DNA of 60,645 nt, taken from Nitrospiraceae bacterium (lineage in GTDB: Bacteria; Nitrospirota; Nitrospiria; Nitrospirales; Nitrospiraceae). The notes under the pieces were generated by a model that saw nothing but the letters and a program-made list of their open reading frames with translations, did no database searches and was not told where the DNA came from. Of the stretch, positions 1 to 23,652 are shown piece after piece. The position numbers and the translations under genes are program-made. Each line of letters starts with the position of its first letter. Positions within the stretch are counted from its first letter, which is position 1. The stretch is taken from the NCBI GenBank assembly GCA_041487795.1, contig JBGPNZ010000001.1:1-60645 (forward strand), written 5' to 3'.

Positions 1-3
1 GAG

Positions 4-588
4 ATGGCCGAGGACAAGTCTTCGGCCATCTACGTCATCGAAGAGCCGCCTGGCAAGAAGGACATCCTGTATGGCGGGACGAAGTACTCGCTTCCCATGC
101 CGTGGATCTACTTCTTCGTCAAGGCGACCAAAGACGCGACCGTCTCGGCGTTCCACGCGATGTACATCCTCTTCTCGAAAACGCGGCTGGAGACGTTGGA
201 ACAAGAGACCCTTCTTGTCCCCTACCTCTCCAACCTCTTCAGGCATGGCGGGGTATGCATGAGCCACGTCACGGCGTACAAGGCCAAGACTCCGATGAAC
301 GTGGTGCGGCTTGCCATCGGATGGTTCTGGGACTCACCAGGGAACTATTTCTGGGACTTCACCAAGCCTCCGCCAGAACTTGCAGCAGGAGGTTCGGGCC
401 TTACGCAATGGCAGGCGATGTCCGTCGAAGAGGCGCTCAAGATCTCCTGGGATGTGCCGCGCTTCAAGTCGATCAAGGCCGCCATCAAGGGCCTGTCCTT
501 CAAGTACTACACCGAGAATTACTGGAGGGTGCGCGACACGAAGGACTGTGTGAATGATATGACGGGGGAAATCGGCAACCCCTTTTGA
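4..588 (+). CDS. E2/UBC-like protein, paralog 1 (putative Ubl-conjugating enzyme)
   Basis: 194-aa ORF. Shares two motifs with 1534-2346, 37280-37963 and 38859-39473: a P-W-x-Y strand (PMPWIYF) and an N-x(7-12)-G-x-(I/V)-C flap (YLSNLFRHGGVC), like the HPN...C active site of UBC enzymes. It ends 15 nt before the RT gene. Upstream context is cut by the window edge. Confidence 0.5.
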   Translation: MAEDKSSAIYVIEEPPGKKDILYGGTKYSLPMPWIYFFVKATKDATVSAFHAMYILFSKTRLETLEQETLLVPYLSNLFRHGGVCMSHVTAYKAKTPMNVVRLAIGWFWDSPGNYFWDFTKPPPELAAGGSGLTQWQAMSVEEALKISWDVPRFKSIKAAIKGLSFKYYTENYWRVRDTKDCVNDMTGEIGNPF

Positions 589-602
589 AAAGAGAGGGAT
601 AA

Positions 603-1532
603 ATGGATCTTTCGCTCTACAAGATCGCTCGTATCCCGAAGGCCAACGGGAAGATGCGAATCCTCCACATCCCGAGTCCTGAACTCAAGGAGAAGCAGCG
701 AGAGCTTCTCTTCAACGAGTATCGAACGGGAGTCGGGCCAGGGCCCTACGCAACAGGCTTCGTCCGCGGACGGTCTATCCTTGACCACGCCAAGCCTCAC
801 GTCGGGAAGAAGTTCGTCGTAGAAGTCGACATCAAGGACTTCTTTCATTCCGTCCGCCCTTGGCATCTCTACAACGCGTGGAAAAGGGAAGGATTGAAAT
901 CGTCCGAGATCCTCGTCCGAAAGATGGTCGTCCGTGATCGGGCCTGGCAAAGGATGATGCCGCCGATCGGGCTCTTGGACATCGCCTTCGTCTGGGCTGG
1001 AAAGAAATGCTTCCTTCCGCAAGGAAGCCCGCTTTCGCCCTATCTTGCCAACCTCGCCATGAAGGAGGCGGACTTCAGGATCGGGATGCTGCTCAAGTTC
1101 TTCTTCAAGCCGGCAGACAGGGCCGCCTTCACGCGCTATGCAGACAACATCGCTCTGTCTTCGGACTCCGAGAGGATCGTCATCGCGGCAAAGCACATCG
1201 TCGACAAGATTCTTCTGTCTCTCAAGTTCCGCGTGAACCACGCGAAGTTCAGGGTCATGCGGAAATCGGCAAGGCAGAAGATCTGCGGGATCGTGGTCAA
1301 CGAGAAGGCCACCCTCCCGAAAAGGAAGCGCCACGAGATCCGTGGTCGGGTGGAAAACCTCTTTAAGGACGCGAAGGCCGGCAAGGAGATCGGTCTCGCG
1401 GAATTCAAATACGTGGACGGTTATCTGGCTTACGCAATCGGCATCGACCCGGCATGGGCGAACCGATTCAAGGCCAAGATGGCCATTGTTCGTGACTATC
1501 TACAGGCAAAACAGCTGAAGGAGGAAGTTTGA
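603..1532 (+). CDS. Reverse transcriptase, retron/Abi-like type, with YADN in place of YADD
   Basis: RT motifs: IPKANGKMRILHIP (RT1), GFVRGRSILDHAKPH..DIKDFFHS (RT2/3), LPQGSPLSPYLANLAM (RT4), FTRYADNIALSS (RT5), ICGIVVNEK (retron-like VTG region). 309 aa, with a purine-rich RBS upstream. Confidence 0.9.
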   Translation: MDLSLYKIARIPKANGKMRILHIPSPELKEKQRELLFNEYRTGVGPGPYATGFVRGRSILDHAKPHVGKKFVVEVDIKDFFHSVRPWHLYNAWKREGLKSSEILVRKMVVRDRAWQRMMPPIGLLDIAFVWAGKKCFLPQGSPLSPYLANLAMKEADFRIGMLLKFFFKPADRAAFTRYADNIALSSDSERIVIAAKHIVDKILLSLKFRVNHAKFRVMRKSARQKICGIVVNEKATLPKRKRHEIRGRVENLFKDAKAGKEIGLAEFKYVDGYLAYAIGIDPAWANRFKAKMAIVRDYLQAKQLKEEV

Positions 1533-1533
1533 A

Positions 1534-2346
1534 ATGCGTAAACAAGTCATCGTGATCATGGACGGCAAGTACTACGCCATCGACGGCAACGTGGTGGCCT
1601 CGGGAAACGCCGCCGAGATCAAGAAGGAACTCGAGGACATGTCCCTCATCCCGCTCACCATCCTGCCGCATGAGGAGATCTCCTGCGCGGCCTTCGCGAG
1701 GGTGGACGAGCGCCGGTTCTTCCTGATGTACGCCCCTTCCAAGCGCCGCCGCATCATGTGGAAGAACAAGGCGACCGGCGAGCGAAAGGAGTTCATGGTG
1801 TGGTTCCCGCATCTCTACATCGGTCTCTTCTTCCGCAACGGCGCGATCGAGCATGGCCACGCCATGGTCTCGTCGAAGAAGATCAAGAGCCCGAAGGACA
1901 TGCTGAACCGTCTTCCCTTGCCGAACACGTCGGGGACGTTCGGCCACATCTGCGAAGGCGCCAAGGGAGCCTGGGACGTGACCGCGGACACCGGGGATAC
2001 GGCGTTTTCGTACATCAAGTACTTCCTGGACTCCGAGTACATCGCGGACATCAACGATCACTTCATGCAGGTGCCCAAGCTCTTCTGGCCCGCGAACTGG
2101 GACTTGGGGAAGAAGATCTACGAGGAGTACATCGAGACGGTGAACCAGGAGATTCTCGCTTCCTGGCAGCACTGCTCGGAAACCGATGTCGAAAGGGTGA
2201 AGGCGCTCGATTGGGGCGCCCGGTTCACGATCCCGGATCTTATCCGCGCCATCTGGGAGACCAGCCCCGATGGGCTTGGGCCCGCCGCCGGCCAGATCGT
2301 GAACAACATCCTCGGTCAAGTCCAGGTCGTCGGCGACGAACAGTAA
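1534..2346 (+). CDS. E2/UBC-like protein, paralog 2
   Basis: 270 aa. The WFPHLYIGLFF strand is followed by RLPLPNTSGTFGHICEG (PN-x8-C), the closest of the four paralogs to the E2 HPN..G.IC signature. The ATG lies 1 nt after the RT stop. Confidence 0.6.
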   Translation: MRKQVIVIMDGKYYAIDGNVVASGNAAEIKKELEDMSLIPLTILPHEEISCAAFARVDERRFFLMYAPSKRRRIMWKNKATGERKEFMVWFPHLYIGLFFRNGAIEHGHAMVSSKKIKSPKDMLNRLPLPNTSGTFGHICEGAKGAWDVTADTGDTAFSYIKYFLDSEYIADINDHFMQVPKLFWPANWDLGKKIYEEYIETVNQEILASWQHCSETDVERVKALDWGARFTIPDLIRAIWETSPDGLGPAAGQIVNNILGQVQVVGDEQ

Positions 2347-2356
2347 AGGAGAAGCC

Positions 2357-2626
2357 ATGGCAGCAAATGAAGAGGAGGGGAAGAAGTTCCAGAACGAGAT
2401 CTGGTTCCTTCTTACCACCAGGCACAAGAAGGTGAAGACGCCCATGCTCATGGATGTTCTTGAGAATCCGGAAGGCCACGGCATCAAGAACGTCTACCCC
2501 GAGATGATGAAAGTCATCCATCGGACGCTCCGCAGGCAGGGCTTCGTCGCCGACCTTCCCGACACGCGCATGTCCGATCGTCTTTTCAAGAAACTACATG
2601 AGAATGGAAAGGAGGAGCTTCTGTGA
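2357..2626 (+). CDS. hypothetical protein (89 aa) in the Ubl operon
   Basis: RBS AAGGAGA upstream of the ATG. Its stop overlaps the GTG start of the next gene (GTGA). No recognisable motif. Confidence 0.55.
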   Translation: MAANEEEGKKFQNEIWFLLTTRHKKVKTPMLMDVLENPEGHGIKNVYPEMMKVIHRTLRRQGFVADLPDTRMSDRLFKKLHENGKEELL

Positions 2627-4191
2627 CACGGTTCTTTGTCACCCCGGACGGCGTCTATGAGGAGTACGAGGATCAGCTCTTCAAGGGGCTGATCAAGGTG
2701 TCGTTCCCCATCCACAACTACGACAAGGATGCGGGGGACACCTTGGACATGTCGAACGAGAAGATCGAGGAGAAGATCAAGATCGTCTTCCCCAAGATCC
2801 CGATCAACCTGTTCCAGGAGGCGCTCGCGTTCCTGGAATGGTGCTACAAGGAGAAGCGGACGGAGGGATTCCTCACGTTCCATCTTCTCAACAACAAGTG
2901 GAGTCTGGGTTGCCCCGAACAGTGGAACGGGGCAACATCGGTGTGCTACCATCCTGAGCTCCGCGAAGAGAGAGGCGGGCTCGTGGGAGACATCCATTCC
3001 CATCCGAAGTTTTCGTCGAGTGCTCACTCGCATACGGACTCCCTTGACGAGCGGAAGAACGCAGGCCTCTTCATGGTCGTCAAGGACTTCTCCCTCATGA
3101 ACTGTGAACCCGACATCCGGGGCGTCGTCCGCGGCACGACGTTCCAGATCAAGCCGAAGTATGTCTTCTCGATGGCCGGCATCAAGGATGAGGCCAACCC
3201 CGATGATCCCGAAAAGGCGGTCATCTCCTTCCCCGATGAATGGAAGGAAAGGGTGCATGTTGCTCCCTGCGAGCAGTGCAAAAGGGTCAAGGACGCAGGA
3301 GAGAAGAACGTCAAGGAGACAAAGGAGAAGGAGGAGAAGGAGAAGAGGCTGATCCCCAAGCGTCTCCTCGAAGCCTGGCGGAAGTCCCTCGACGGGAAGC
3401 CCTTCGGCGCCGAAATCATCGACTACCACGATCGGTGGGCCAAGGATTCGAAGTACAACGGGCACCTCGTCTGCCCGAACTACGGCTGCGGAAAGTTCGT
3501 CCGCAATCTCGAGTGCCCCGAATGCAAGAAGACCCTCACGCTGTACGAGGTCGCCAAGATGTTCGCCGAGCTCATCGATGAGACCGACTGCTTCGCGGAA
3601 ATGAAGGGCGATCTCAAGAAGCTCGAGGCGATCGCCGAGTTCTTCGAGAAACAGGCTGCTGGCAGCACGGCCACGGGTACGAGCAGCACGCCTGCGCATG
3701 ATCACGCGCATGATCACGACACCAAGAGGATCATCGTGCGGCCCGCAGCCAAGGATCCGGATGATACCGACATCATCCTCATCGTGGACGGGGACAAGTG
3801 CGAGGAGGACTGCCGCTTCAGGAAAGAGCAGATCTCCCACCAGCACATCCCCAACAAGAGCCAGCCGATCGTCGGACAGGAGCCGTGCCAGGACAAGGAA
3901 TGCGCCGAAATGGGGCATGTCCTCATCATGTGTAAGAACGTGTCCGCCGCAAAGGCGGCGCGTGCCGCGGAAATGAAAGATCAGGAGGCGGTCGCCGCCG
4001 CGTCGGCCAGGGAGGCCAGTGATGATCTTCCGCGGATGATTTACCCCGTCGAGTGCAGCGCCTCGTGCAACCTCGCCGGACAGCCGCACACCCATGGGCC
4101 TCGTCCGACGACGGAAGAGGCGCCGGCGAAAGTCGAGGAGACGAAGGCGACTCCCGCAACAGAACCCAACGACATGGTTGGGTGGGAATGA
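2623..4191 (+). CDS. JAB/MPN (JAMM) metallopeptidase with zinc-ribbon and low-complexity C-terminal region
   Basis: JAMM-like motif DIHSHPKFSSSAHSHTD with upstream Glu residues. CxxC pairs (CEQCKR; CPNYGCG...CPECKK). His/Asp-rich stretch HDHAHDHD. 522 aa. Confidence 0.75.
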   Translation: MTRFFVTPDGVYEEYEDQLFKGLIKVSFPIHNYDKDAGDTLDMSNEKIEEKIKIVFPKIPINLFQEALAFLEWCYKEKRTEGFLTFHLLNNKWSLGCPEQWNGATSVCYHPELREERGGLVGDIHSHPKFSSSAHSHTDSLDERKNAGLFMVVKDFSLMNCEPDIRGVVRGTTFQIKPKYVFSMAGIKDEANPDDPEKAVISFPDEWKERVHVAPCEQCKRVKDAGEKNVKETKEKEEKEKRLIPKRLLEAWRKSLDGKPFGAEIIDYHDRWAKDSKYNGHLVCPNYGCGKFVRNLECPECKKTLTLYEVAKMFAELIDETDCFAEMKGDLKKLEAIAEFFEKQAAGSTATGTSSTPAHDHAHDHDTKRIIVRPAAKDPDDTDIILIVDGDKCEEDCRFRKEQISHQHIPNKSQPIVGQEPCQDKECAEMGHVLIMCKNVSAAKAARAAEMKDQEAVAAASAREASDDLPRMIYPVECSASCNLAGQPHTHGPRPTTEEAPAKVEETKATPATEPNDMVGWE

Positions 4192-4223
4192 TTTGAAACA
4201 TCTTTTTTCAAGAAAGGAGGCTG

Positions 4224-4967
4224 ATGGAAGGGACATTCGTAAGAACCGTGGTCGTAGGTTGTGGCGGTGTCTTTTCACGCCTGGCGCTCATCCTGGCCGA
4301 GAACTCGTTCTGCATGAAGGACGCTCCGAAAGAGATCCTTCTCGCGGACGGTGACGAGGTCGAGGCGAAGAACCTCGCGAGGCAGAGCTTTCTGCCGCAG
4401 GACATCAAGCGCAAGAAGGCGGAGGTTTGGGCGGATAGACTCGGGAAGCGGTTCCCCGATCTCAATGTCCGTCCCATGCCCGAGTTCGTCACTTCGAAGA
4501 ACATCGCCACGGTCATCCAGGACGGATCCATCGTGCTGTCGGCGGTGGACAACAACGCGACAAGGCTTCTCCTTTCCCAGCACGTGCAGACGCTCGGGAA
4601 TGCCATCCTCATCTCGGGTGGCAACGAGCTCACGGACGGGAACGTGCAGCTCTTCATCCGCCTGAAGGGCGATTCGAGAAATGCTCCCATCGAGGAGGTG
4701 CACGAGGAGTTCAAGAATCCCAAGGACAAGAATCCGGGGGACATCTCCTGCGAGGAACGGCTGGCCCTTCCCGGGGGCGAGCAGCTCGCGGAGACCAATA
4801 TGGCGGTCGCGCTCTACATGGCGCGTTTCTTCAGAACGATCATCACGGCTCTCGGGAAGCCTGAGGAATGGAAGGAGGTGGAAAGAGGGAAGTTGTTCGC
4901 GGAAGTGCAGTTCGACCTCGCGGACTTCACGAGCTGTGGATACAAGCGAGGGGCAGTACTCAGGTGA
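4224..4967 (+). CDS. ThiF/MoeB-type E1-like adenylating enzyme
   Basis: VVVGCGGVFSRLALILAE (GxGxxG Rossmann), LADGDEVEAKNLARQ (DxD..NLxRQ), AVDNNATR. At 247 aa it matches stand-alone ThiF/PRTRC-type E1-like proteins. RBS AAAGGAGG. Confidence 0.8.
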   Translation: MEGTFVRTVVVGCGGVFSRLALILAENSFCMKDAPKEILLADGDEVEAKNLARQSFLPQDIKRKKAEVWADRLGKRFPDLNVRPMPEFVTSKNIATVIQDGSIVLSAVDNNATRLLLSQHVQTLGNAILISGGNELTDGNVQLFIRLKGDSRNAPIEEVHEEFKNPKDKNPGDISCEERLALPGGEQLAETNMAVALYMARFFRTIITALGKPEEWKEVERGKLFAEVQFDLADFTSCGYKRGAVLR

Positions 4968-5024
4968 GGTAACACACGTGCAGTACGTTTACTTTCTTTT
5001 CCATCCTTAATTGGAGGAGGTTCC

Positions 5025-5273
5025 ATGGCCGCACAGATCCGTTCCGGCCCCCGCGTGACGCCGATGGGCGACTCGTACAAGGGGAAGACCATCGTCGGGA
5101 AGTCGGTGCGTGAGCTGCGCCAGTGGCTCGAGCACGATCTCCAGATCCCCGAGGGGGCGGAGGCCCGTGTCTCGACCGACGGCGGCGAGACGTCCAAGCG
5201 CGTGGCGGAGGATCACATCCTCGACCACGGTCAGCTGCTCGAGTTCACGCGTCCCGCGGGGACGAAGGGCTAG
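5025..5273 (+). CDS. small beta-grasp ubiquitin-like protein (ThiS/MoaD/Prok_Ub-like) ending in Gly
   Basis: 82 aa. Pattern ..GKSVRELRQWL...ILDHGQLLEFTRPAGTKG-stop. Strong RBS GGAGGAGGTTCC. It sits directly after the E1-like gene and is followed by a GC-rich hairpin. Confidence 0.6.
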   Translation: MAAQIRSGPRVTPMGDSYKGKTIVGKSVRELRQWLEHDLQIPEGAEARVSTDGGETSKRVAEDHILDHGQLLEFTRPAGTKG

Positions 5274-5295
5274 AGCCGGGTTGAAGTGAGGTAAA

Positions 5296-5341
5296 GGGGA
5301 GGGGGGCGGGAGGAGGTTCCAATCCCCGCCCCCCTCTTTCC
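5296..5341 (+). terminator. GC-rich hairpin closing the Ubl operon (weak intrinsic terminator)
   Basis: 12-bp stem GAGGGGGGCGGG / CCCGCCCCCCTC (5299-5310 / 5325-5336) followed by only TTT. The loop contains GGAGGTTCC. Confidence 0.45.
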
Positions 5342-5390
5342 ACACGTGTCACTAGGAACTCTATCTGTTGGCAGACGGAGAGTCAAGAAA

Positions 5391-5939
5391 ATGCCGATTG
5401 TTATTGGGGTCAAGAAGCCGGACAAGGCCATCCCGATCTACACGGCGAAAAAGGCCGCCGAGCTTCTCAAGGAAATCCGCGAAGAAGAGGATGAGGTCTT
5501 CTGCTGCATCTACCTCAATCCCGATCTTGAAATCACCGGTTTTGGCCCAGTGGCCGTAGGCTCGCTCATGTCCGTATCCATCGAGCCCAAGAACGTTTTC
5601 CGGTTCCCGTTCACGGACAAGTGGACGAAGTTCGTGATCATCGCCCACAACCATCCTGGACAACGGGAACCCAGGCCCAGCTCGAAAGACGAGGACAAGA
5701 CGTACGAGTTGACCGCGGCGGGGCGCATCACCGGGTTCCCGATCGTCGATGCACTCATCATCGGCCTTGAGGGGTACTACTCCTTCATGGAGCATGGGAA
5801 GATCTGGATTAAGGGAGATTCCTATCGCGAGAAGATGAAGGAGGAAGAAGACAAGGTCGGCGAGAACAAGCACAAGGGATCCACGCGTGCGAAGCGCGAT
5901 GAACTGCGCCCGTACCCGATGGTCTTCAGACGATCTTAG
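5391..5939 (+). CDS. radC: RadC-like JAB domain protein
   Basis: AHNHPGQREPRPSSKDEDKT matches the RadC/DUF2466 signature HNHPSG..PS..D..T. Start taken at ATG 5391; the open frame reaches 5346. Confidence 0.75.
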   Translation: MPIVIGVKKPDKAIPIYTAKKAAELLKEIREEEDEVFCCIYLNPDLEITGFGPVAVGSLMSVSIEPKNVFRFPFTDKWTKFVIIAHNHPGQREPRPSSKDEDKTYELTAAGRITGFPIVDALIIGLEGYYSFMEHGKIWIKGDSYREKMKEEEDKVGENKHKGSTRAKRDELRPYPMVFRRS

Positions 5940-5983
5940 CGAGGTCGGTAGGGCCCGTATTCGCCGACAGGCGGATATGGGCC

Positions 5984-6532
5984 CTACTTCCTGCCGGGAT
6001 GGCCGAAGAAGTAGTGTTCGATGACGGGCTTGGGCTCGTTCGTGTTATGCGACGTCTTCCCATACCAGCAATAGGCTTTGGGAAGGTACTTGACCTTCGC
6101 GTCCGCCCTGTTGAGGACATGCTTCTCGAGAACCAGATCCTCGGAAGCGATCGGGAGCTCGTCCGTCATCCCAGACCACACGCGGGTGAGCAGCCTCCCG
6201 ATGTCGTTGTTGCGGACGAAGATCGTGCCGCCCCAGACCGATCCCTTGTCGCTCCTGTGGACGGCGATGTCGAACCCCGTCTCGGTTTCAAAGAAGCTAA
6301 GAGGCTGGTGGACTTTGGCGTCGCAGTCGAGATAGAGGATGTTGTGGGTCGGATACAGATAGAGCATCCTGTTCACGAAGCTGGGTTTGATCCGGCAGTT
6401 CTTGAGCCAGGCTCCGCGATCGGGGATCTCCTCGACGTGATGGCCCATGTCGAGCGCACGGAGGGACTGCGTCAGAACCGTGGCGGCGTCACGGTACCTG
6501 GCGTTAGTGTAGAACGAGACTACTTTGAGCAT
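5984..6532 (-). CDS. putative nucleotide-sugar glycosyltransferase (GT-A-like)
   Basis: 182 aa. LYLDCD (DxD) in a GT8-like/nucleotide-diphospho-sugar transferase layout. Overlaps the 3' end of the SNF2 gene by 29 nt. Confidence 0.5.
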   Translation of the reverse strand: MLKVVSFYTNARYRDAATVLTQSLRALDMGHHVEEIPDRGAWLKNCRIKPSFVNRMLYLYPTHNILYLDCDAKVHQPLSFFETETGFDIAVHRSDKGSVWGGTIFVRNNDIGRLLTRVWSGMTDELPIASEDLVLEKHVLNRADAKVKYLPKAYCWYGKTSHNTNEPKPVIEHYFFGHPGRK

Positions 6533-8225
6533 CGGCCATCCTGATCAAATCGGCTTCCTTCATCCGTTTCCCGAAGAGGTACTCCACAAGATCCTTGTGC
6601 TGCTTGAAGCTGTTGACGAGATATTCGTCGATCGAGTTCTTGAGCGCGACGTCCACGTAGAGGACGGCGTTCTTCTGGCCCTTGCGGTGGAGGCGTCCTT
6701 CCGCCTGGGAGCGGACGCCATAAGACCACCAGTTGTTGATAAAGCCGCAGGTACTCGACATCTGAAGGTTAAGGCCGAATCCTCCCTTTTGAACCTGGGA
6801 GAGGAAGAAATCGGCATTGCCCTTCACGAAGAGCTCGCGTGCGTTTTCGGCGTGTTCTGCCGGCATGCGTCCATGGTAGGAGACCGCATGGAAGCCGGCC
6901 TTTCCAAGCAGCTTCTCCATCACCCAGAGGTCTTCCACGAAGCGGGAGAAGATCACGACCTTCTGCCCGCGGGTCTCCTCGGAAAGATCCAGTACCGCGT
7001 CGCCCTTGGCGTTGTCCTTGAAGTAGATGACATCGCCCTCGGCGTTCTTCGTCCAGCCCATGCCGATCTGCTGGACTCGGGTGATCCGGGACATCGCATT
7101 CTTGATGAGGACGAACTGCTGAGTAGAAGTCTCCGCGCCCTTCTTGACGGCTTCCACGGCGAAGTGGAACTCGTCCATCGCGCGGTCGATGGCCTCCTTC
7201 TGGTCGCCCACCGGTTCGACCCAGCGCACGGAATAGCTTTTAGGCGGCAGATCCGTAAGAACTTCTTCCTTCCGAACGCTCATGCCCGCGTAGCCCATCA
7301 GCTCCTTGAGCTCGGGCTTCATCTCCTCCTTGACCTCCTTGGGCGTCTTGCCTTTGGGGTCGAACTCCATGTACCGTTCGGCAAAGCGCATGAAGGAAGG
7401 GCTCGAGTACATCTCGCCCAGGAACCTCATCTGCGACCAGAAGTCAGTGACGTTCGAGATGAACGGCGTCCCGTTCAGGGCCACCACGTACTCGGCCCTG
7501 TCGGCGATGGCAATCGCCGCCCGAGTCCTCTGGGCGGCCTTGTTCTTGATGAAGCCCGTCTCGTCCCCAATGACGAAGTCGAACTTGTAGTCGAGGAACT
7601 CTTCTTCCATCCGTCGAGCCACGTCCCAGGACATGATCCCGAACGTGAGCCGGATCGGGTTGGGCTTCTTCCACTCTTCGAGCAGTCTCGAGCGGCGCTT
7701 CTTCGCTCCCTTGATCTCGATCACTTTCGGGATCACCGTGAGGTGCTTTTCCATTTCCTCGATCCAAGTCGACGTCAGGGAAAGCGGACACAGGATGAGC
7801 ACCTTGCTCTTCCCTTCGAACTTGAAGAGCTCCTCGGCCACCCAGAGGGCTCCGTAGGTCTTTCCGACGCCGACATCCCACCAGAGGCCGTTCCGCTTCA
7901 TGTAGCGGATGCGATTCTGGCCGATCTCCTGATGGGTCATCGCCTCGTTCTTGAGAGCGACCGTCTGGCCGTTCGGAGAGATGCACTGCTCGGAGAGAAG
8001 GATCTTATGGCGAAGTTTGGCGAGCCACGCTTCGACTTCCGAGATATCGTCCCCGGGCTGGTGGGGAGAGTTGATGGCCGAAAGAGCGACCAGGACGCTC
8101 GCCGGCACGATCCAGGCCTTTCGGATCTTATCCCAATGGGCACCTAGCGTCCGTACTTCTTCGTTCCTTTCGACAGGGAGATCCCTGAAGACGAAAGTGT
8201 TCCCAAAGTCGACGTAAACCCGCAC
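6504..8225 (-). CDS. SNF2-family helicase/ATPase
   Basis: DVGVGKTYGA (Walker A), VIGDETGFIKN (DExx), ALNGTPFISN (III), GGFGLNLQ and QAEGRLHRKGQ (V/VI). 573 aa. Confidence 0.9.
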   Translation of the reverse strand: MRVYVDFGNTFVFRDLPVERNEEVRTLGAHWDKIRKAWIVPASVLVALSAINSPHQPGDDISEVEAWLAKLRHKILLSEQCISPNGQTVALKNEAMTHQEIGQNRIRYMKRNGLWWDVGVGKTYGALWVAEELFKFEGKSKVLILCPLSLTSTWIEEMEKHLTVIPKVIEIKGAKKRRSRLLEEWKKPNPIRLTFGIMSWDVARRMEEEFLDYKFDFVIGDETGFIKNKAAQRTRAAIAIADRAEYVVALNGTPFISNVTDFWSQMRFLGEMYSSPSFMRFAERYMEFDPKGKTPKEVKEEMKPELKELMGYAGMSVRKEEVLTDLPPKSYSVRWVEPVGDQKEAIDRAMDEFHFAVEAVKKGAETSTQQFVLIKNAMSRITRVQQIGMGWTKNAEGDVIYFKDNAKGDAVLDLSEETRGQKVVIFSRFVEDLWVMEKLLGKAGFHAVSYHGRMPAEHAENARELFVKGNADFFLSQVQKGGFGLNLQMSSTCGFINNWWSYGVRSQAEGRLHRKGQKNAVLYVDVALKNSIDEYLVNSFKQHKDLVEYLFGKRMKEADLIRMADAQSSLVLH

Positions 8226-8898: not shown

Positions 8899-9642
8899 AT
8901 GGCGCCCTTCGTCTCTTGCATCATGAGCACGGGACTTCGGAGGAAGTTCCTGCCCCACGCCATCCGTTTTTGGAGCCACCAGACGCACCAGGATCGGGAA
9001 CTCATCATCCTGGACGACGACCCTGAGAGTTCCGAGGACTTGATCCCCAAGGACGAAAGGATCCGCTACGTCCGCGTCCCCTACATGACGCCGCTTGCAG
9101 CGAAGATGAACAAGGGGATCTCGATGGCCCGCGGGCCCTACATCCAGAAGATGGACGACGACGATTATTACCCTCCGAAGTTCCTGGGGATGATGGTCGA
9201 AACGATCCTGCCCTCTGGAGAGCCTTTTCTTTCGGCCGCAGGCTGCTCTCTTTGTCTCATCGCCTACACAGGCAAGCTCAAATTCACGGGCTATGAGTTC
9301 TTCCTGGGAGCCACCCTTTTCTTTCCGAAGTCGATCTGGGAGAAGATTCCCTTCAACGAGACGGTCATTCCCGAGTGTGATTACCGCTTCATGTGGGATC
9401 AGACCTTGGTAGGCGTGAAGCGGATCTCGGTCGTCTCCGATCCCGAGTTCTTCATGTTCACGCGGCATGGAGAACGCCATACCTGGGTGGAAGACCACAA
9501 TGTCAGTGTCGAGCAGTTCTTTTCGTACAGGAATGACCATACGAGAAGCCTCGAGCAGTACCTCGCGTCCGATCAGGAGAGTCTGAAGTTCTACCAGAAC
9601 CTGATCAAAGAGAAATCCAAGAAACAGGAGACCAAAGCATGA
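8899..9642 (+). CDS. family 2 glycosyltransferase (GT-A)
   Basis: N-terminal SCIMSTGLRRKFLPHAIRFWSHQTHQDRELIILDDD and MDDDDYYP (DxD). RBS GGAGG. Confidence 0.75.
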   Translation: MAPFVSCIMSTGLRRKFLPHAIRFWSHQTHQDRELIILDDDPESSEDLIPKDERIRYVRVPYMTPLAAKMNKGISMARGPYIQKMDDDDYYPPKFLGMMVETILPSGEPFLSAAGCSLCLIAYTGKLKFTGYEFFLGATLFFPKSIWEKIPFNETVIPECDYRFMWDQTLVGVKRISVVSDPEFFMFTRHGERHTWVEDHNVSVEQFFSYRNDHTRSLEQYLASDQESLKFYQNLIKEKSKKQETKA

Positions 9643-11054
9643 ACATCTCAAGCGTGAGACTCGGGCATGCGAACAACTCGAGCTCGACCCATTCGATCCT
9701 CCTCAACTCGCCGTCCAGATCCAAGAGCGGCATCGTTGAGAACTTCCAGTACGGATGGGAATGGTTCCATCTCAAGCACAAGGACGACAAGGCGATGTAC
9801 CTCTCGGCCCTGGTCTTCGTCTCTCTCCAGGGGGACATGTCCGCGGAGCACGCGGCGGTCATCGCCCATTCCCTGACGGGAATGAACCCGATCGACAGCC
9901 GCGAGAAGGACAAGTACTGGTCGGTCTATGTGGATCACCAGAGCGTGAATGCCTTCCCCCTCGGGTTCGGAACGGAACACTACGATGCGACCTTCATGAA
10001 GGAGTTCGTGGAGTACATCCGAGACACGCCTGAGATCTCGATCCGCGGCGGCAACGACAACGTGGAGGATCGTGATGAATCCGAGAGGAAGACCGCCACG
10101 GGCGAGGAGAGCATCCTGAACTCCCTCCCCAGGGACTGTGGGAAGGTCAAACTCTTCTCCAAGAAGGACAAGGACTGGTGGATCCTCTACAACAAGGAGA
10201 CGGGCGCCAAGCTCCGTGTTTCCTTCGGGAAGGAGCCCAAACCCTACACCAGTTCGTCGCAGCCCGAGCTCGTGGACATCAAGATCACGGACTACTGCCC
10301 CTACGGCTGCAAGTTCTGCTACCAGGACTCCACGAAGGGAGGGAAGCACGCGCCGCTGGGGATCCTCCAGCAGCTCGCCTACAACTGCCGGGAGGCCAAG
10401 GTCTTCGAAGTCGCGCTCGGCGGCGGTGAGACGACCCAGCACCCCCAGTTCACGGAAGTGCTCAAGGCCTTCGGGTGGAACGGAGTCACTCCCAACTTCA
10501 CGACCTTCAACATGAGCTGGGTGACCGATAAGGACAAGGTCGAAGCAGTGGAGAAGTTCTGCCGCAGCTTCGCGGTCTCCGACCCCTATTCGATCAAGCA
10601 GATCGCCCGGTGGAACGACGATCACCCTTACGGTTACGTCGATAAGACGGGGATCAAGGCCACGCTCCAGCTCCCGCTGGGATGCTACGAGGAGAAGGTC
10701 ACCAGAAAGGCTCTCGATGGCGCTTCGGCCCTGAACGTTCCTGTCACTCTCCTGGGATTCAAAGACCACGGGAGAGGCAAGGAGGTCGTTCCTGTCGATG
10801 CGTCCTGGATCATCGACTACCTCGTGAAGTCGGATTCGTTCCATGCCTTCGGCGCCGACTCGGTCTTCGTCGAGCAGTTCAGAGGCCAGCTCAAGTCCGC
10901 CGGGATCTCCGAGAAGCTCATGGTGAACAAGGAAGGCGCCTACTCCTGCTACATCGACGCGGTGAGCATGCAGGGCGCCGCATCCTCCTACACCAAGGAG
11001 CTTCATCCGTTCGATCCGAATAAGCCCTTTGAGAGGTTCCCGTACGCCGCATAG
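9639..11054 (+). CDS. radical SAM enzyme with ~200-aa N-terminal extension
   Basis: CPYGCKFC (CxxxCxxC) followed by ALGGGETT (SAM-binding GGE motif). The ATG overlaps the previous stop (ATGA). Confidence 0.85.
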   Translation: MNISSVRLGHANNSSSTHSILLNSPSRSKSGIVENFQYGWEWFHLKHKDDKAMYLSALVFVSLQGDMSAEHAAVIAHSLTGMNPIDSREKDKYWSVYVDHQSVNAFPLGFGTEHYDATFMKEFVEYIRDTPEISIRGGNDNVEDRDESERKTATGEESILNSLPRDCGKVKLFSKKDKDWWILYNKETGAKLRVSFGKEPKPYTSSSQPELVDIKITDYCPYGCKFCYQDSTKGGKHAPLGILQQLAYNCREAKVFEVALGGGETTQHPQFTEVLKAFGWNGVTPNFTTFNMSWVTDKDKVEAVEKFCRSFAVSDPYSIKQIARWNDDHPYGYVDKTGIKATLQLPLGCYEEKVTRKALDGASALNVPVTLLGFKDHGRGKEVVPVDASWIIDYLVKSDSFHAFGADSVFVEQFRGQLKSAGISEKLMVNKEGAYSCYIDAVSMQGAASSYTKELHPFDPNKPFERFPYAA

Positions 11055-11197
11055 ATAGCACGGCACCGCGAATGTCATCCGGGGTTCAAGACACGAACGT
11101 CGTCCAGGCTTCCGGTGCCGTGCTTTAACCGATCGTAGGCGGTTCGATCTACGACGCCCACTCCAAGCGTTGTTGGAGTCTGTCCGGAGGTTCGTTT

Positions 11198-11341
11198 ATG
11201 TTGCAGCGTCCAATGGCAAGGTCGATGAAGCGTAAACAGTTTACTTGTCACGGATGCAGGCGACGGTTGCAGAAGAAGAACATCCACCATCACAGAGACG
11301 ATCAACCGTACTGCTGGAATTGTTGGCGATCAATGTACTAG
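11198..11341 (+). CDS. small zinc-ribbon protein (47 aa)
   Basis: Not in the ORF track (<60 aa). GGAGGTTCgttt-ATG RBS of the type used by many genes here. CHGC...CWNC pairs. Confidence 0.4.
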   Translation: MLQRPMARSMKRKQFTCHGCRRRLQKKNIHHHRDDQPYCWNCWRSMY

Positions 11342-11448
11342 ATCTTTGGAGGAAAAAATGAAAAGCGGATCCAGGCATATCCGAGATCCCGACCCGTCGT
11401 CGGGAGCACCCATGTGAAGTATCTTTGACCTTACTTTACGGAGGTTCC

Positions 11449-23535: not shown

Positions 23536-23652
23536 ACCATGTATGTATTCTTTCTGAGAATACCCTTCTTTCAGTTCTACAAGCTACCTAAATATCCTGC
23601 TCTTTCGTGCCTCAGGAATAGCGGTAGTTCTCAGATAGAATACATACATGGT
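23536..23652. repeat. 25-nt inverted repeat pair with ~67-nt AT-richer spacer
   Basis: ACCATGTATGTATTCTTTCTGAGAA (23536-23560) pairs with TTCTCAGATAGAATACATACATGGT (23628-23652), with 1 mismatch. Lies in a ~500-nt non-coding gap before the replication-initiation genes. Confidence 0.8.

Follow-up and report, generated by a model that had tools for sequence, protein, structure and literature searches.

The DNA considered here, called the window throughout, is the 60,645-nucleotide (nt) stretch formed by positions 1 to 60,645 of contig JBGPNZ010000001.1 (assembly GCA_041487795.1, filed under Nitrospiraceae bacterium). A preliminary description of the sequence had assigned it to a phage and had drawn attention to its first genes, where a retron-type reverse transcriptase (RT) is embedded among genes of a ubiquitin-like conjugation system. 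The phage context is well founded: the window encodes a DNA polymerase, two helicases, a primase, a ribonucleotide reductase (RNR), a UvsX-like recombinase and NAMPT, and carries 28 tRNA genes. We describe below the RT-containing cassette, its conservation in related loci (designated by L numbers) and the explanations that can be offered for the association.

Organization of the locus

The listing of open reading frames (ORFs) in the window shows eight tightly packed ORFs on the same strand at positions 1–5939 (Table 1). The intergenic distances from ORF1 to ORF8 are 14, 1, 10, -4 (an overlap), 32, 57 and 72 or 117 nt, the last value depending on whether ORF8 starts at 5346 or 5391. Seven co-oriented, packed genes followed by a RadC-type JAB gene had been reported initially; the ORFs lie as reported, and the RT, JAB, ThiF and RadC products match curated models. 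Across relatives the core order is RT, E2, a protein of ~85 amino acids (aa), JAB, ThiF, a protein of ~80 aa and RadC, and the ratios of nonsynonymous to synonymous substitution rates (dN/dS) indicate purifying selection on all eight genes of the cassette. Our reading is that these genes make up the downstream portion of a cassette conserved among phages.

Table 1. Coordinates of the cassette genes and associated features. Positions refer to the window unless a related locus is named.
Feature	Position	Strand	Basis
ORF1, Prok-E2_D-like, 5'-truncated	1..588	+	open frame, homologs, profile comparison
ORF2, retron-family reverse transcriptase, 309 aa	603..1532	+	RVT_1, retron RT models
ORF3, divergent Prok-E2_D-like, 270 aa	1534..2346	+	homologs, hhalign, profile relatives
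ORF4, conserved 89-aa protein	2357..2626	+	constant position in cassettes
ORF5, JAB/JAMM metalloprotease with Cys-rich C-terminal region	2623..4191	+	Prok-JAB
ORF6, ThiF/E1-like adenylating enzyme, 247 aa	4224..4967	+	ThiF
ORF7, candidate ubiquitin-like modifier, 82 aa, ending in AGTKG before the stop	5025..5273	+	KG, weak profiles
G/C-rich hairpin, Ubl-RadC intergenic region	5296..5341	+	folding energy
ORF8, RadC-type JAB, 182 aa from the ATG at 5391	5391..5939	+	RadC model
Strong hairpin separating RadC from the convergent gene 5984-6532(-)	5947..5988	.	inverted repeat, fold
Orphan Prok-E2_D-like paralog, 227 aa, 'PLPNIDYGTYKTLGVC'	37280..37963	+	phmmer with ORF1 3e-3; family HMM 4e-23
Orphan Prok-E2_D-like paralog, 'PLPNTSAGRNRRPGTIC'	38859..39473	+	phmmer with ORF1 6e-4; family HMM 6e-24
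Structured non-coding elements of related loci	L024 2240-2960; L025 9663-10196; L027 1408-2061; L028 10952-11739		hairpin arms, folding

Two boundaries of the cassette had to be revised. The gene previously placed at 4–588 does encode an E2-like protein, but its real start lies outside the window: the frame is open from base 1 and the ATG at base 4 corresponds to an internal Met. Full-length homologs of ORF1 measure 233–237 aa (235 aa for P0008; also P0009), and in L024, whose positions 10121–11346 are 96.7% identical in nucleotide sequence to positions 1–1225 of the window, the gene starts 120 nt earlier and encodes 235 aa. At the other end, a G/C-rich hairpin at 5296–5341 had been thought to close the operon, leaving RadC as a mere follower. 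The hairpin is real (-36.5 kcal/mol) but folds no better than shuffled sequences (z -1.6); it was not called by a terminator scan and gave only weak, chance-level microRNA matches in Rfam. RadC belongs to the cassette, since it follows the Ubl gene in eight relatives (L015, L016, L022, L025, L027, L028, L029 and L031). The hairpin at 5296–5341 is unconvincing as a terminator and is possibly an internal attenuator or processing site. The true end of the transcription unit likely coincides with the hairpin at 5947–5988, which has 18-nt arms of 89% complementarity and a folding energy of -42 kcal/mol (z -7.2).

The reverse transcriptase

ORF2 matches RVT_1 (E 4.5e-22), the PADLOC retron RT models (~1e-50) and the NCBIfam model retron_St85_RT (3.7e-48), the last with 164 bits, below the 235-bit cut-off. 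When a profile of its clade is compared with PDB sequences, the retron Ec86 RT comes first (6e-42), followed by Ec67, Ec78, Ec83 and Kva2; the best retron matches span 1e-36 to 6e-42 and group II RTs appear at 1e-12. On these sequence grounds ORF2 is assigned to the retron RT clade. We rejected its identification as a group II intron maturase or as the RT of a diversity-generating retroelement because of the way the PDB and NCBIfam matches rank.

The window RT retains Asp76 in motif A and LPQG in motif B, and both motifs are invariant across the clade. Motif C reads YADN (aa 179–182, nt 1137–1148) in place of YADD, and the catalytic YxDD box of retrons is therefore lacking in this enzyme. Among the 17 closest RT clusters, YADN occurs in 5 and YADG in 12; YADD is found from the subclade of 43–46% identity outward, that is, in this next subclade and in nearly all outgroups, ~80 of them. 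The dN/dS value calculated against L016 is 0.10, as low as for ORF3 and close to that of ThiF. A decaying pseudogene is excluded by this value and by the intact motifs A and B, and the pattern of constraint indicates that the window RT is needed, though probably not as a standard polymerase. One of the related loci, L022 (positions 1–533), encodes an RT of 58% identity with an in-frame stop after motif B (…IDHRSR*LIRR…), the rest of the sequence being intact; sequencing error, recent pseudogenization or recoding could each account for this stop.

Linkage of the reverse transcriptase to the conjugation genes

Sequence ahead of the orthologous E2 gene is available for 13 lineages, and in every one of them the RT gene is found immediately before that gene. 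These lineages are the window, L013, L016–18, L019, L020, L022, L023, L025, L027, L028, L029, L031 and L079, paired loci (L013/L014, L020/21 and L025/26) being counted as one lineage. RT identity across these lineages extends from 100% down to 36%, with 48% for L031, 43–46% for L025/26, L027 and L028, 39% for L029 and 36% for L079, a scaffold from a Planctomycetaceae metagenome-assembled genome that bears the nearest copy in a genome. In L013/L014, a contig of 147 kb, the ORF3 protein is 45% identical. The preliminary description had held that absence of the RT from related operons would point to a chance insertion; the opposite was found in every informative lineage, and this comparison of gene neighbourhoods supports the RT as an integral member of the cassette.

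More distant loci were surveyed as well. Among RT loci on viral contigs, with RTs of 23–48% identity, ThiF lies within a few kb in 19 of 46. The corresponding figure for bacteria and archaea is 1 of 80 (the best 80 loci from 185,579 species genomes), both counts relying on family hidden Markov models (HMMs) built from those same loci. The ThiF-linked RT loci display three gene arrangements, RT-E2-JAB-ThiF, E2-JAB-ThiF-x-RT and JAB-ThiF-RT; in the third, the gene ahead of ThiF encodes an HxHx7Sx2D motif.

The conjugation genes also occur without the RT. In L024, a second, RT-less cassette is found at 3278–7722, just upstream of the position equivalent to the window start. It comprises three tandem Prok-E2_D-like genes, Prok-JAB, ThiF and a gene for an 83-aa protein in which an 11-residue tail follows the Lys-Gly (KG) pair, and three small genes, then one more E2-like gene, separate it from the ORF1 homolog. 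Similar E2-JAB-ThiF-Ubl cassettes lacking the RT are present in L013 and in two cultured phages, Arash and Vibrio phage D69, so the conjugation kit does not require the RT. The RT lineage of the cassette is rarely seen without the kit, though the kit can work without the RT.

The pairing of RT and conjugation genes is found repeatedly in uncultured phages, many of which carry it. No match to positions 1–6000 of the window was obtained by blastn in 50,697 GenBank phages. Scans of viral contigs with single proteins recovered distant RTs only and no relative of the E1-like protein. A tblastn search of GenBank phages with RT and ThiF as queries detected the RT-containing cassette in none of the cultured phages; the same search returned an unverified Staphylococcus record with the RT alone and a fecal contig with JAB-ThiF alone. 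A metagenome scan with the ORF3 family yielded four loci, two of them already known and two cut at the E2 gene.

The JAB, E1-like and RadC proteins and the candidate modifier

The E1-like protein and both JAB domains recognized initially are matched by curated models (ThiF, Prok-JAB and RadC). ORF5 reaches 27 bits (4.2e-6) with Prok-JAB, for a gathering score of 25; its JAMM domain occupies about aa 1–180 and 10 cassette JABs all share E81, H125, H127, S136 and D139. The remainder of the protein is variable, Cys-rich and zinc-ribbon-like, with CxxC pairs seen in the translation. ORF6 matches ThiF with 87 bits (1.5e-24, gathering score 28.1), and its best NCBIfam matches are ThiS and MoaD adenylyltransferases. 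Invariant positions include the GxGG motif (G12/G14/G15), N50-x2-R53-Q54, D109 and Cys176, the latter being the candidate thioester cysteine; N110 is nearly invariant. ORF8 matches RadC at 9.7e-22 with an intact HNHP...D motif (H101, N102, H103, P104 and D115). Given the invariance of their active-site residues, the JAMM, E1-like and RadC enzymes look catalytically competent. The dN/dS values are 0.07 for ORF6, 0.075 for ORF8 and 0.23 for ORF4. The latter protein has no family match in the libraries scanned and keeps its position between the E2-like and JAB genes in all related cassettes.

ORF7 was proposed at first sight as a ubiquitin-like (Ubl) modifier ending in Gly. Its context, its invariant C-terminal Lys-Gly and weak ubiquitin profile matches speak for this assignment; a search with its structural model gave no significant match, as detailed below, and a beta-grasp fold is regarded as putative. 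The protein has no direct family match in the libraries scanned. The Lys-Gly pair is invariant in 10 homologs and is followed by tails of 0–11 aa: none in the window and one relative, a single residue in L025 and L031, and 1–11 residues in six homologs taken together. Variable tails of this kind are typical of precursors that a JAB protease processes. The ORF7 family profile has a ubiquitin variant as its best PDB match (E 0.014); chains of polyubiquitin, SAMP2, ThiS and FAF1-UBL make up about half of this weak list, in which HPr proteins also appear. The AlphaFold2 model built from the single sequence is of low confidence (predicted local distance difference test, pLDDT, 68) and shows the order strand-strand-helix-strand...strand.

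A further observation concerns the Ubl gene of the upstream cassette in L013. This ORF, as called, stops ahead of the conserved KG, and an ORF-less group II intron RNA at 5182–5731 (RF01999, 95.6 bits; RF00029, 52.3 bits) abuts its 3' end, with an HNH gene adjoining the intron on the opposite strand. The intron may interrupt the Ubl gene.

The E2-like proteins

ORF1 and ORF3 have no direct family match in the Pfam (none at E<1), NCBIfam or PADLOC libraries, the only PADLOC match of ORF3 being a chance-level one to PDC-S02 (E 0.049). Their relationship to E2 enzymes emerges at the profile level. Aligned by hhalign with A4, a Prok-E2_D-like family formed by the tandem E2-like genes of L024, the ORF1 family scores 98.8% (E 4e-17, 177 columns) and the ORF3 family 97% (E 1e-10, 152 columns). 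The A4 paralogs in turn match Prok-E2_D with E values of 9.6e-6, which passes the gathering score, 2.6e-4 and 0.029, and one of them matches PRTRC_B (3e-4, 20 bits for a cut-off of 131). When the ORF3 profile was run with HMMER over all 1.84 billion representatives, only 64 proteins were recovered; 36 of the 62 relatives scanned match Prok-E2_D, with a best value of 2.8e-10, and no other family recurs. The ORF3 ortholog of L029 has a precomputed Prok-E2_D match at E <= 1e-5.

A short cysteine motif unites these proteins. In ORF3 it reads PLPN-x6-GHICEG and is constant in seven homologs of 45–90% identity; over 62 sequences, Cys140 (nt 1951–1953) is invariant and Asn131 is conserved in >=90%. 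The ORF1 homologs carry YL(P/S)N-x5-GG(I/V)C, and the candidate catalytic Cys of ORF1 is located within 'YLSNLFRHGGVC'. The AlphaFold2 model of ORF3 (pLDDT 76, from an alignment of 8 sequences) places a helix, a strand meander, the Cys loop and helices in this order, with ~7 strands ahead of the Cys loop, which exceeds the core of the canonical ubiquitin-conjugating (UBC) fold. The E2/UBC-like designation given earlier is thus supported by profile comparison and by the invariant Cys, but not by fold search: since Foldseek retrieved no UBC structure with the ORF3 model, ORF1 and ORF3 are taken from their sequences as probable members of a divergent Prok-E2_D lineage and the UBC fold is regarded as putative.

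The count of four E2 paralogs is correct for the window, the two others lying at 37280–37963 and 38859–39473. The latter, contained in an ORF listed from 38625, likely starts at the Met of MPLVT. Both share the PxN-loop Cys motif of ORF1 and ORF3 in intact form (PLPN..G.[VI]C). This orphan pair flanks a 272-aa ORF (37978–38796), far from any E1 or JAB gene, and is followed at 39966–40445 by a treble-clef zinc protein (zf_Tbcl). The paralog at 37280–37963 possibly works together with the cassette. The lineage of L024 has at least six E2-like genes, and each cassette comes with between two and six E2-like proteins, in which the Cys is invariant.

Non-coding elements associated with the cassettes

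In cassettes whose RT carries YADD, 530–790 nt of non-coding DNA separate the RT and E2 genes and contain near-perfect hairpins (140–195 nt, with arms of 47–75 nt) followed by a terminator-like stem. The gap measures 175–300 nt in YADG cassettes, with hairpins of ~75–80 nt, and 1 nt in the window, where only 14 nt precede the RT gene. The series YADD, YADG, YADN therefore parallels the shrinkage, then the loss, of the adjoining structured element, and it offers a natural comparison for asking what the RT contributes. Two of the elements were folded and compared with shuffled sequences, giving z -20 for L028 and z -13 for L024. The L024 element is 720 nt long, contains a 48-bp perfect hairpin and lies 7.9 kb upstream of the L024 RT. 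No copy of the relatives' elements was detected in the window by blastn, no long inverted repeat lies near the window RT, and Rfam reported no retron or other family in the cassette region or in the relatives' non-coding elements. A 22-nt inverted repeat spanning the RT/ORF3 junction (1370–1391/1677–1698), considered as the a1/a2 pair of an embedded retron, was rejected: L017 does not conserve it, and it is among 17 comparable pairs of the window.

A smaller GGYG-NAN-CGYC hairpin recurs in the RT-E2 gaps and is likewise present ahead of the RT-less cassettes in L024 and L013. Over ten instances, which were found by a pattern fixing the inner four pairs, 93% of cells are paired and 7 of 10 pairs display compensatory changes; none of 500 shuffles scored as high and slid controls were likewise far off.

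Comparison with known systems

The closest named system, judged from family matches that miss the curated cut-offs, is PRTRC (ParB-related, ThiF-related cassette; TIGR03735-03742), which belongs to the E1/E2/JAB/Ubl operons described in bacteria (Iyer, Burroughs and Aravind 2006, PMC1779556). E2-like, JAB and ThiF proteins and a small Gly-terminated modifier are found in both systems and give the best specific matches here, and both are located on mobile elements, which for PRTRC are plasmids and integrative elements. PRTRC_ThiF matches ORF6 at 1.7e-15 (57 bits, cut-off 144.75) and PRTRC_A matches ORF5 at 2.7e-5 (23.8 bits, cut-off 101.8). In NCBIfam, no window ORF matches PRTRC_B or PRTRC_C, and NCBIfam and Pfam give no match to the ParB-related component or to PRTRC_D/E/F among the eight cassette ORFs. 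The present cassette further differs in being carried by a large phage of lytic type, in the multiplication of its E2-like genes and in the addition of the RT, ORF4 and RadC; neither an RT nor RadC is mentioned in the 2006 paper (PMC1779556).

With retrons, the cassette shares an RT of the same family, compact (~300 aa), and, in the YADD relatives, a neighbouring structured element with long hairpins together with possible effector genes. The window RT departs from retrons by its YADN and by ICG at the place of VTG, and it has neither an adjoining msr-msd nor an Rfam retron match. In the relatives, the element stands downstream of the RT and is 3–4 times longer than a typical retron RNA. Its carrier is a phage rather than a bacterial defence island. 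Partners of the ThiF, JAB, E2 or RadC kind are missing from all 13 retron types (Mestre et al. 2020, PMC7736814).

The Bil system (BilABCD) and the Cap2/Cap3 pair of the type II cyclic-oligonucleotide-based antiphage signalling system (CBASS) follow a comparable logic of E1, E2 and JAB, with or without Ubl, in the setting of phage-bacterium conflict. With PADLOC, ORF6 weakly matches the E1 part of Cap2-type E1-E2 fusions (1.5e-8) and BilD (4.9e-4); ORF1, ORF4, ORF5, ORF7 and ORF8 have no match, and BilA, B and C were not detected. Unlike these systems, the cassette encodes E1 and E2 as separate proteins, lacks a CD-NTase, is phage-encoded and includes an RT.

The RT-less sets of large phages (L024 and L013 upstream cassettes, Arash gp248c-246c and D69) resemble the cassette in gene order, with E2-like, JAB and ThiF genes in the same succession, and differ by lacking the RT, ORF4 and RadC. 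Their products are annotated as hypothetical or 'structural'. In Salmonella phage Arash (OQ632216, L077), the 'structural protein' label of the E2-like and ThiF-like genes within gp248c-gp246c originates from a virion mass-spectrometry list of 116 proteins that includes many enzymes. The list also has RNR, kinases and RNA polymerase, and the labels were set aside as evidence of packaging; they are weak hints that the kit is packaged in Arash virions.

According to the preliminary description, no described Ubl-conjugation operon has an RT as an integral gene. Our full-text literature search agrees, having found no RT linked to ThiF, JAB, E2 or PRTRC genes; as most subscription journals lie outside its reach, the RT-conjugation link is provisionally regarded as undescribed. 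Bil/CBASS conjugation and the RTs of retrons and defence-associated reverse transcriptases (DRT) are active topics in phage-bacterium conflict that have so far been treated as separate toolkits. The deep conservation of a joint cassette and its enrichment in phages over hosts suggest that protein tagging may be linked biochemically to the synthesis or recognition of nucleic acids. Entire E1/E2/JAB/Ubl kits also turn out to be carried by phages, certain lineages having two of them per genome and as many as six E2-like genes, and the PRTRC-type cassette, whose function is undescribed in the literature searched, gains a tractable viral context.

Interpretation and alternative explanations

The best overall explanation, to which we give a probability of about 0.55, is that a retron-family RT is integral to a PRTRC-type ubiquitin-like conjugation module of phages. 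Its parts differ in strength. The existence of a conserved cassette uniting an RT with conjugation genes is very probable. A specific role of the RT, whose complex with a nucleic acid might act as sensor, guide or substrate of tagging, is proposed tentatively from the comparison of loci; if RT and tagging chemistry were coupled in this way, the mechanism would be substantially new.

The conjugation cycle can be drawn from the conserved catalytic residues and the known functions of the families. The E1-like enzyme would adenylate Gly82 of the modifier and take it onto Cys176, the modifier would then pass to the Cys of an E2-like protein (Cys140 in ORF3 or its equivalent in ORF1) and would finally be attached to a target. 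The JAMM protein would trim modifier tails and reverse conjugates, and RadC would serve as a second JAB-type hydrolase. The part played by the RT is suggested by comparative anatomy. The ancestral form, with a YADD RT and a structured element of 0.5–0.8 kb, would have been a retron-style unit of RT plus RNA/cDNA with the conjugation machinery as its effector, the nucleic-acid-protein complex acting as a sensor, a specificity factor or a substrate scaffold of tagging. Because the window RT has YADN and has lost the element, yet is strongly constrained, it may be viewed as a retained subunit that binds nucleic acids, is weakly active or has an altered activity. It may also use a related element such as that of L024, situated 7.9 kb upstream and hence outside the window. 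Counter-defence, exclusion of rival phages and phage replication are candidate roles for the cassette as a whole; the roles put forward earlier, counter-defence or cDNA-linked tagging, are speculation.

Several findings count against this explanation. All window ORFs fall short of the curated cut-offs for PRTRC, Bil and retrons. Foldseek searches of the PDB with the ORF3 model retrieved no UBC match (best E 0.1), those with the single-sequence model of ORF7 gave nothing significant (best E 0.08), and an hhalign comparison of the Ubl family with ubiquitin reached only 10%. YADN may confer little or no polymerase activity, and no candidate template RNA adjoining the RT was identified in the window by Rfam, by the inverted-repeat search or by blastn of the relatives' elements. 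The small hairpin also precedes an RT-less cassette, and the non-coding element may be part of the E2 module, for instance a leader, instead of belonging to the RT. To these must be added the RT-less cassettes themselves, in the same phage lineage (L024 and L013) as well as in cultured phages, the derivation of the survey HMMs from the surveyed loci and the pattern-based recovery of the small hairpin.

A more specific version of the integral-RT explanation goes one step further. The cassettes would form a retron-derived class in phages with a ubiquitin-like effector, in which the RNA or cDNA bound by the RT directs attachment of the modifier or is itself joined to it, and in which the YADN and YADG enzymes are nucleic-acid-reading subunits, normal polymerisation having been lost in some lineages. 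We regard this as unlikely in its full form.

Next comes the possibility that the RT is a separate accessory gene of the phage, of stand-alone retron-like or anti-defence type, that merely shares an island and a promoter with a PRTRC-like cassette. The RT-less cassettes of L024, L013, Arash and D69 fit this idea, as do the absence of a nearby ThiF from 27 of 46 viral and 79 of 80 genomic RT relatives and the variable position of the RT relative to the kit in the different architectures. It has to face the retention of adjacency in all 13 informative lineages down to 36% RT identity, the recurrence of the linkage in three independent gene orders, gaps of about 1–15 nt in the window and the difference between 19 of 46 viral and 1 of 80 genomic loci. 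The RT clade moreover tracks the cassette clade, and the motif C change accompanies the intergenic shrinkage. On this balance an accessory gene appears improbable, somewhat more so than the retron-derived class.

Less probable still is a sulfur-carrier pair of the ThiS/ThiF, MoaD/MoeB or TtuB/TtuC type, in which the ThiF-like and Gly-terminated proteins would modify a nucleic acid (tRNA, phage DNA or the product of the RT) instead of tagging proteins, and the JABs would only mature the carrier. The ThiS and MoaD adenylyltransferases are indeed the best NCBIfam matches of ORF6; the single terminal Gly, with tails in relatives, resembles JAB-processed sulfur carriers (PMC1779556), and a radical SAM gene and a glycosyltransferase gene lie 3–5 kb away in a window with 28 tRNA genes. 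Against this, a sulfur relay would not require E2-like proteins, of which two to six, sharing an invariant Cys, accompany each cassette; no rhodanese, cysteine desulfurase or thiolase-type partner is found among the cassette matches in Pfam and NCBIfam, and the invariant Cys176 of the E1-like protein fits a thioester relay.

The least probable alternative, in which ORF1 and ORF3 would be no E2 enzymes but proteins of another fold with a short motif likeness, so that the cassette would combine E1, JAB and carrier with other proteins, draws on the lack of direct Pfam, NCBIfam and PADLOC matches, on the Foldseek result for a model of pLDDT 76, on the ~7 strands before the Cys loop and on the failure of the A4 E2 profile to find any PDB sequence, and it is disfavoured by hhalign alignments covering 150–180 columns, beyond the motif, by Prok-E2_D as the only recurring family (36 of 62 relatives, best 2.8e-10) and its match in the L029 ortholog, by the invariant Cys and near-invariant Asn of the PxN...C motif and by an order of elements that matches UBC.

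Other features of the window

Just downstream of the cassette, at 8899–11054 and, on the minus strand, 6504–8225, genes for a family 2 glycosyltransferase and a radical SAM protein adjoin a SNF2-type helicase gene; this group could be a DNA or RNA modification module. The 28 tRNA genes at 42833–60428, all on the plus strand among small ORFs, form a very large set for a phage fragment. Directly before the first of them, at 41152–42771, lies a gene for a TROVE/Ro60-like RNA-binding protein (Pfam TROVE 1.8e-7; phrog_850); Rfam reported no Y-RNA family. An AT-rich inverted repeat at 23536–23652, intergenic and located after a helicase gene, has 25-nt arms of 96% complementarity set 67 nt apart and is a candidate origin or regulatory site.

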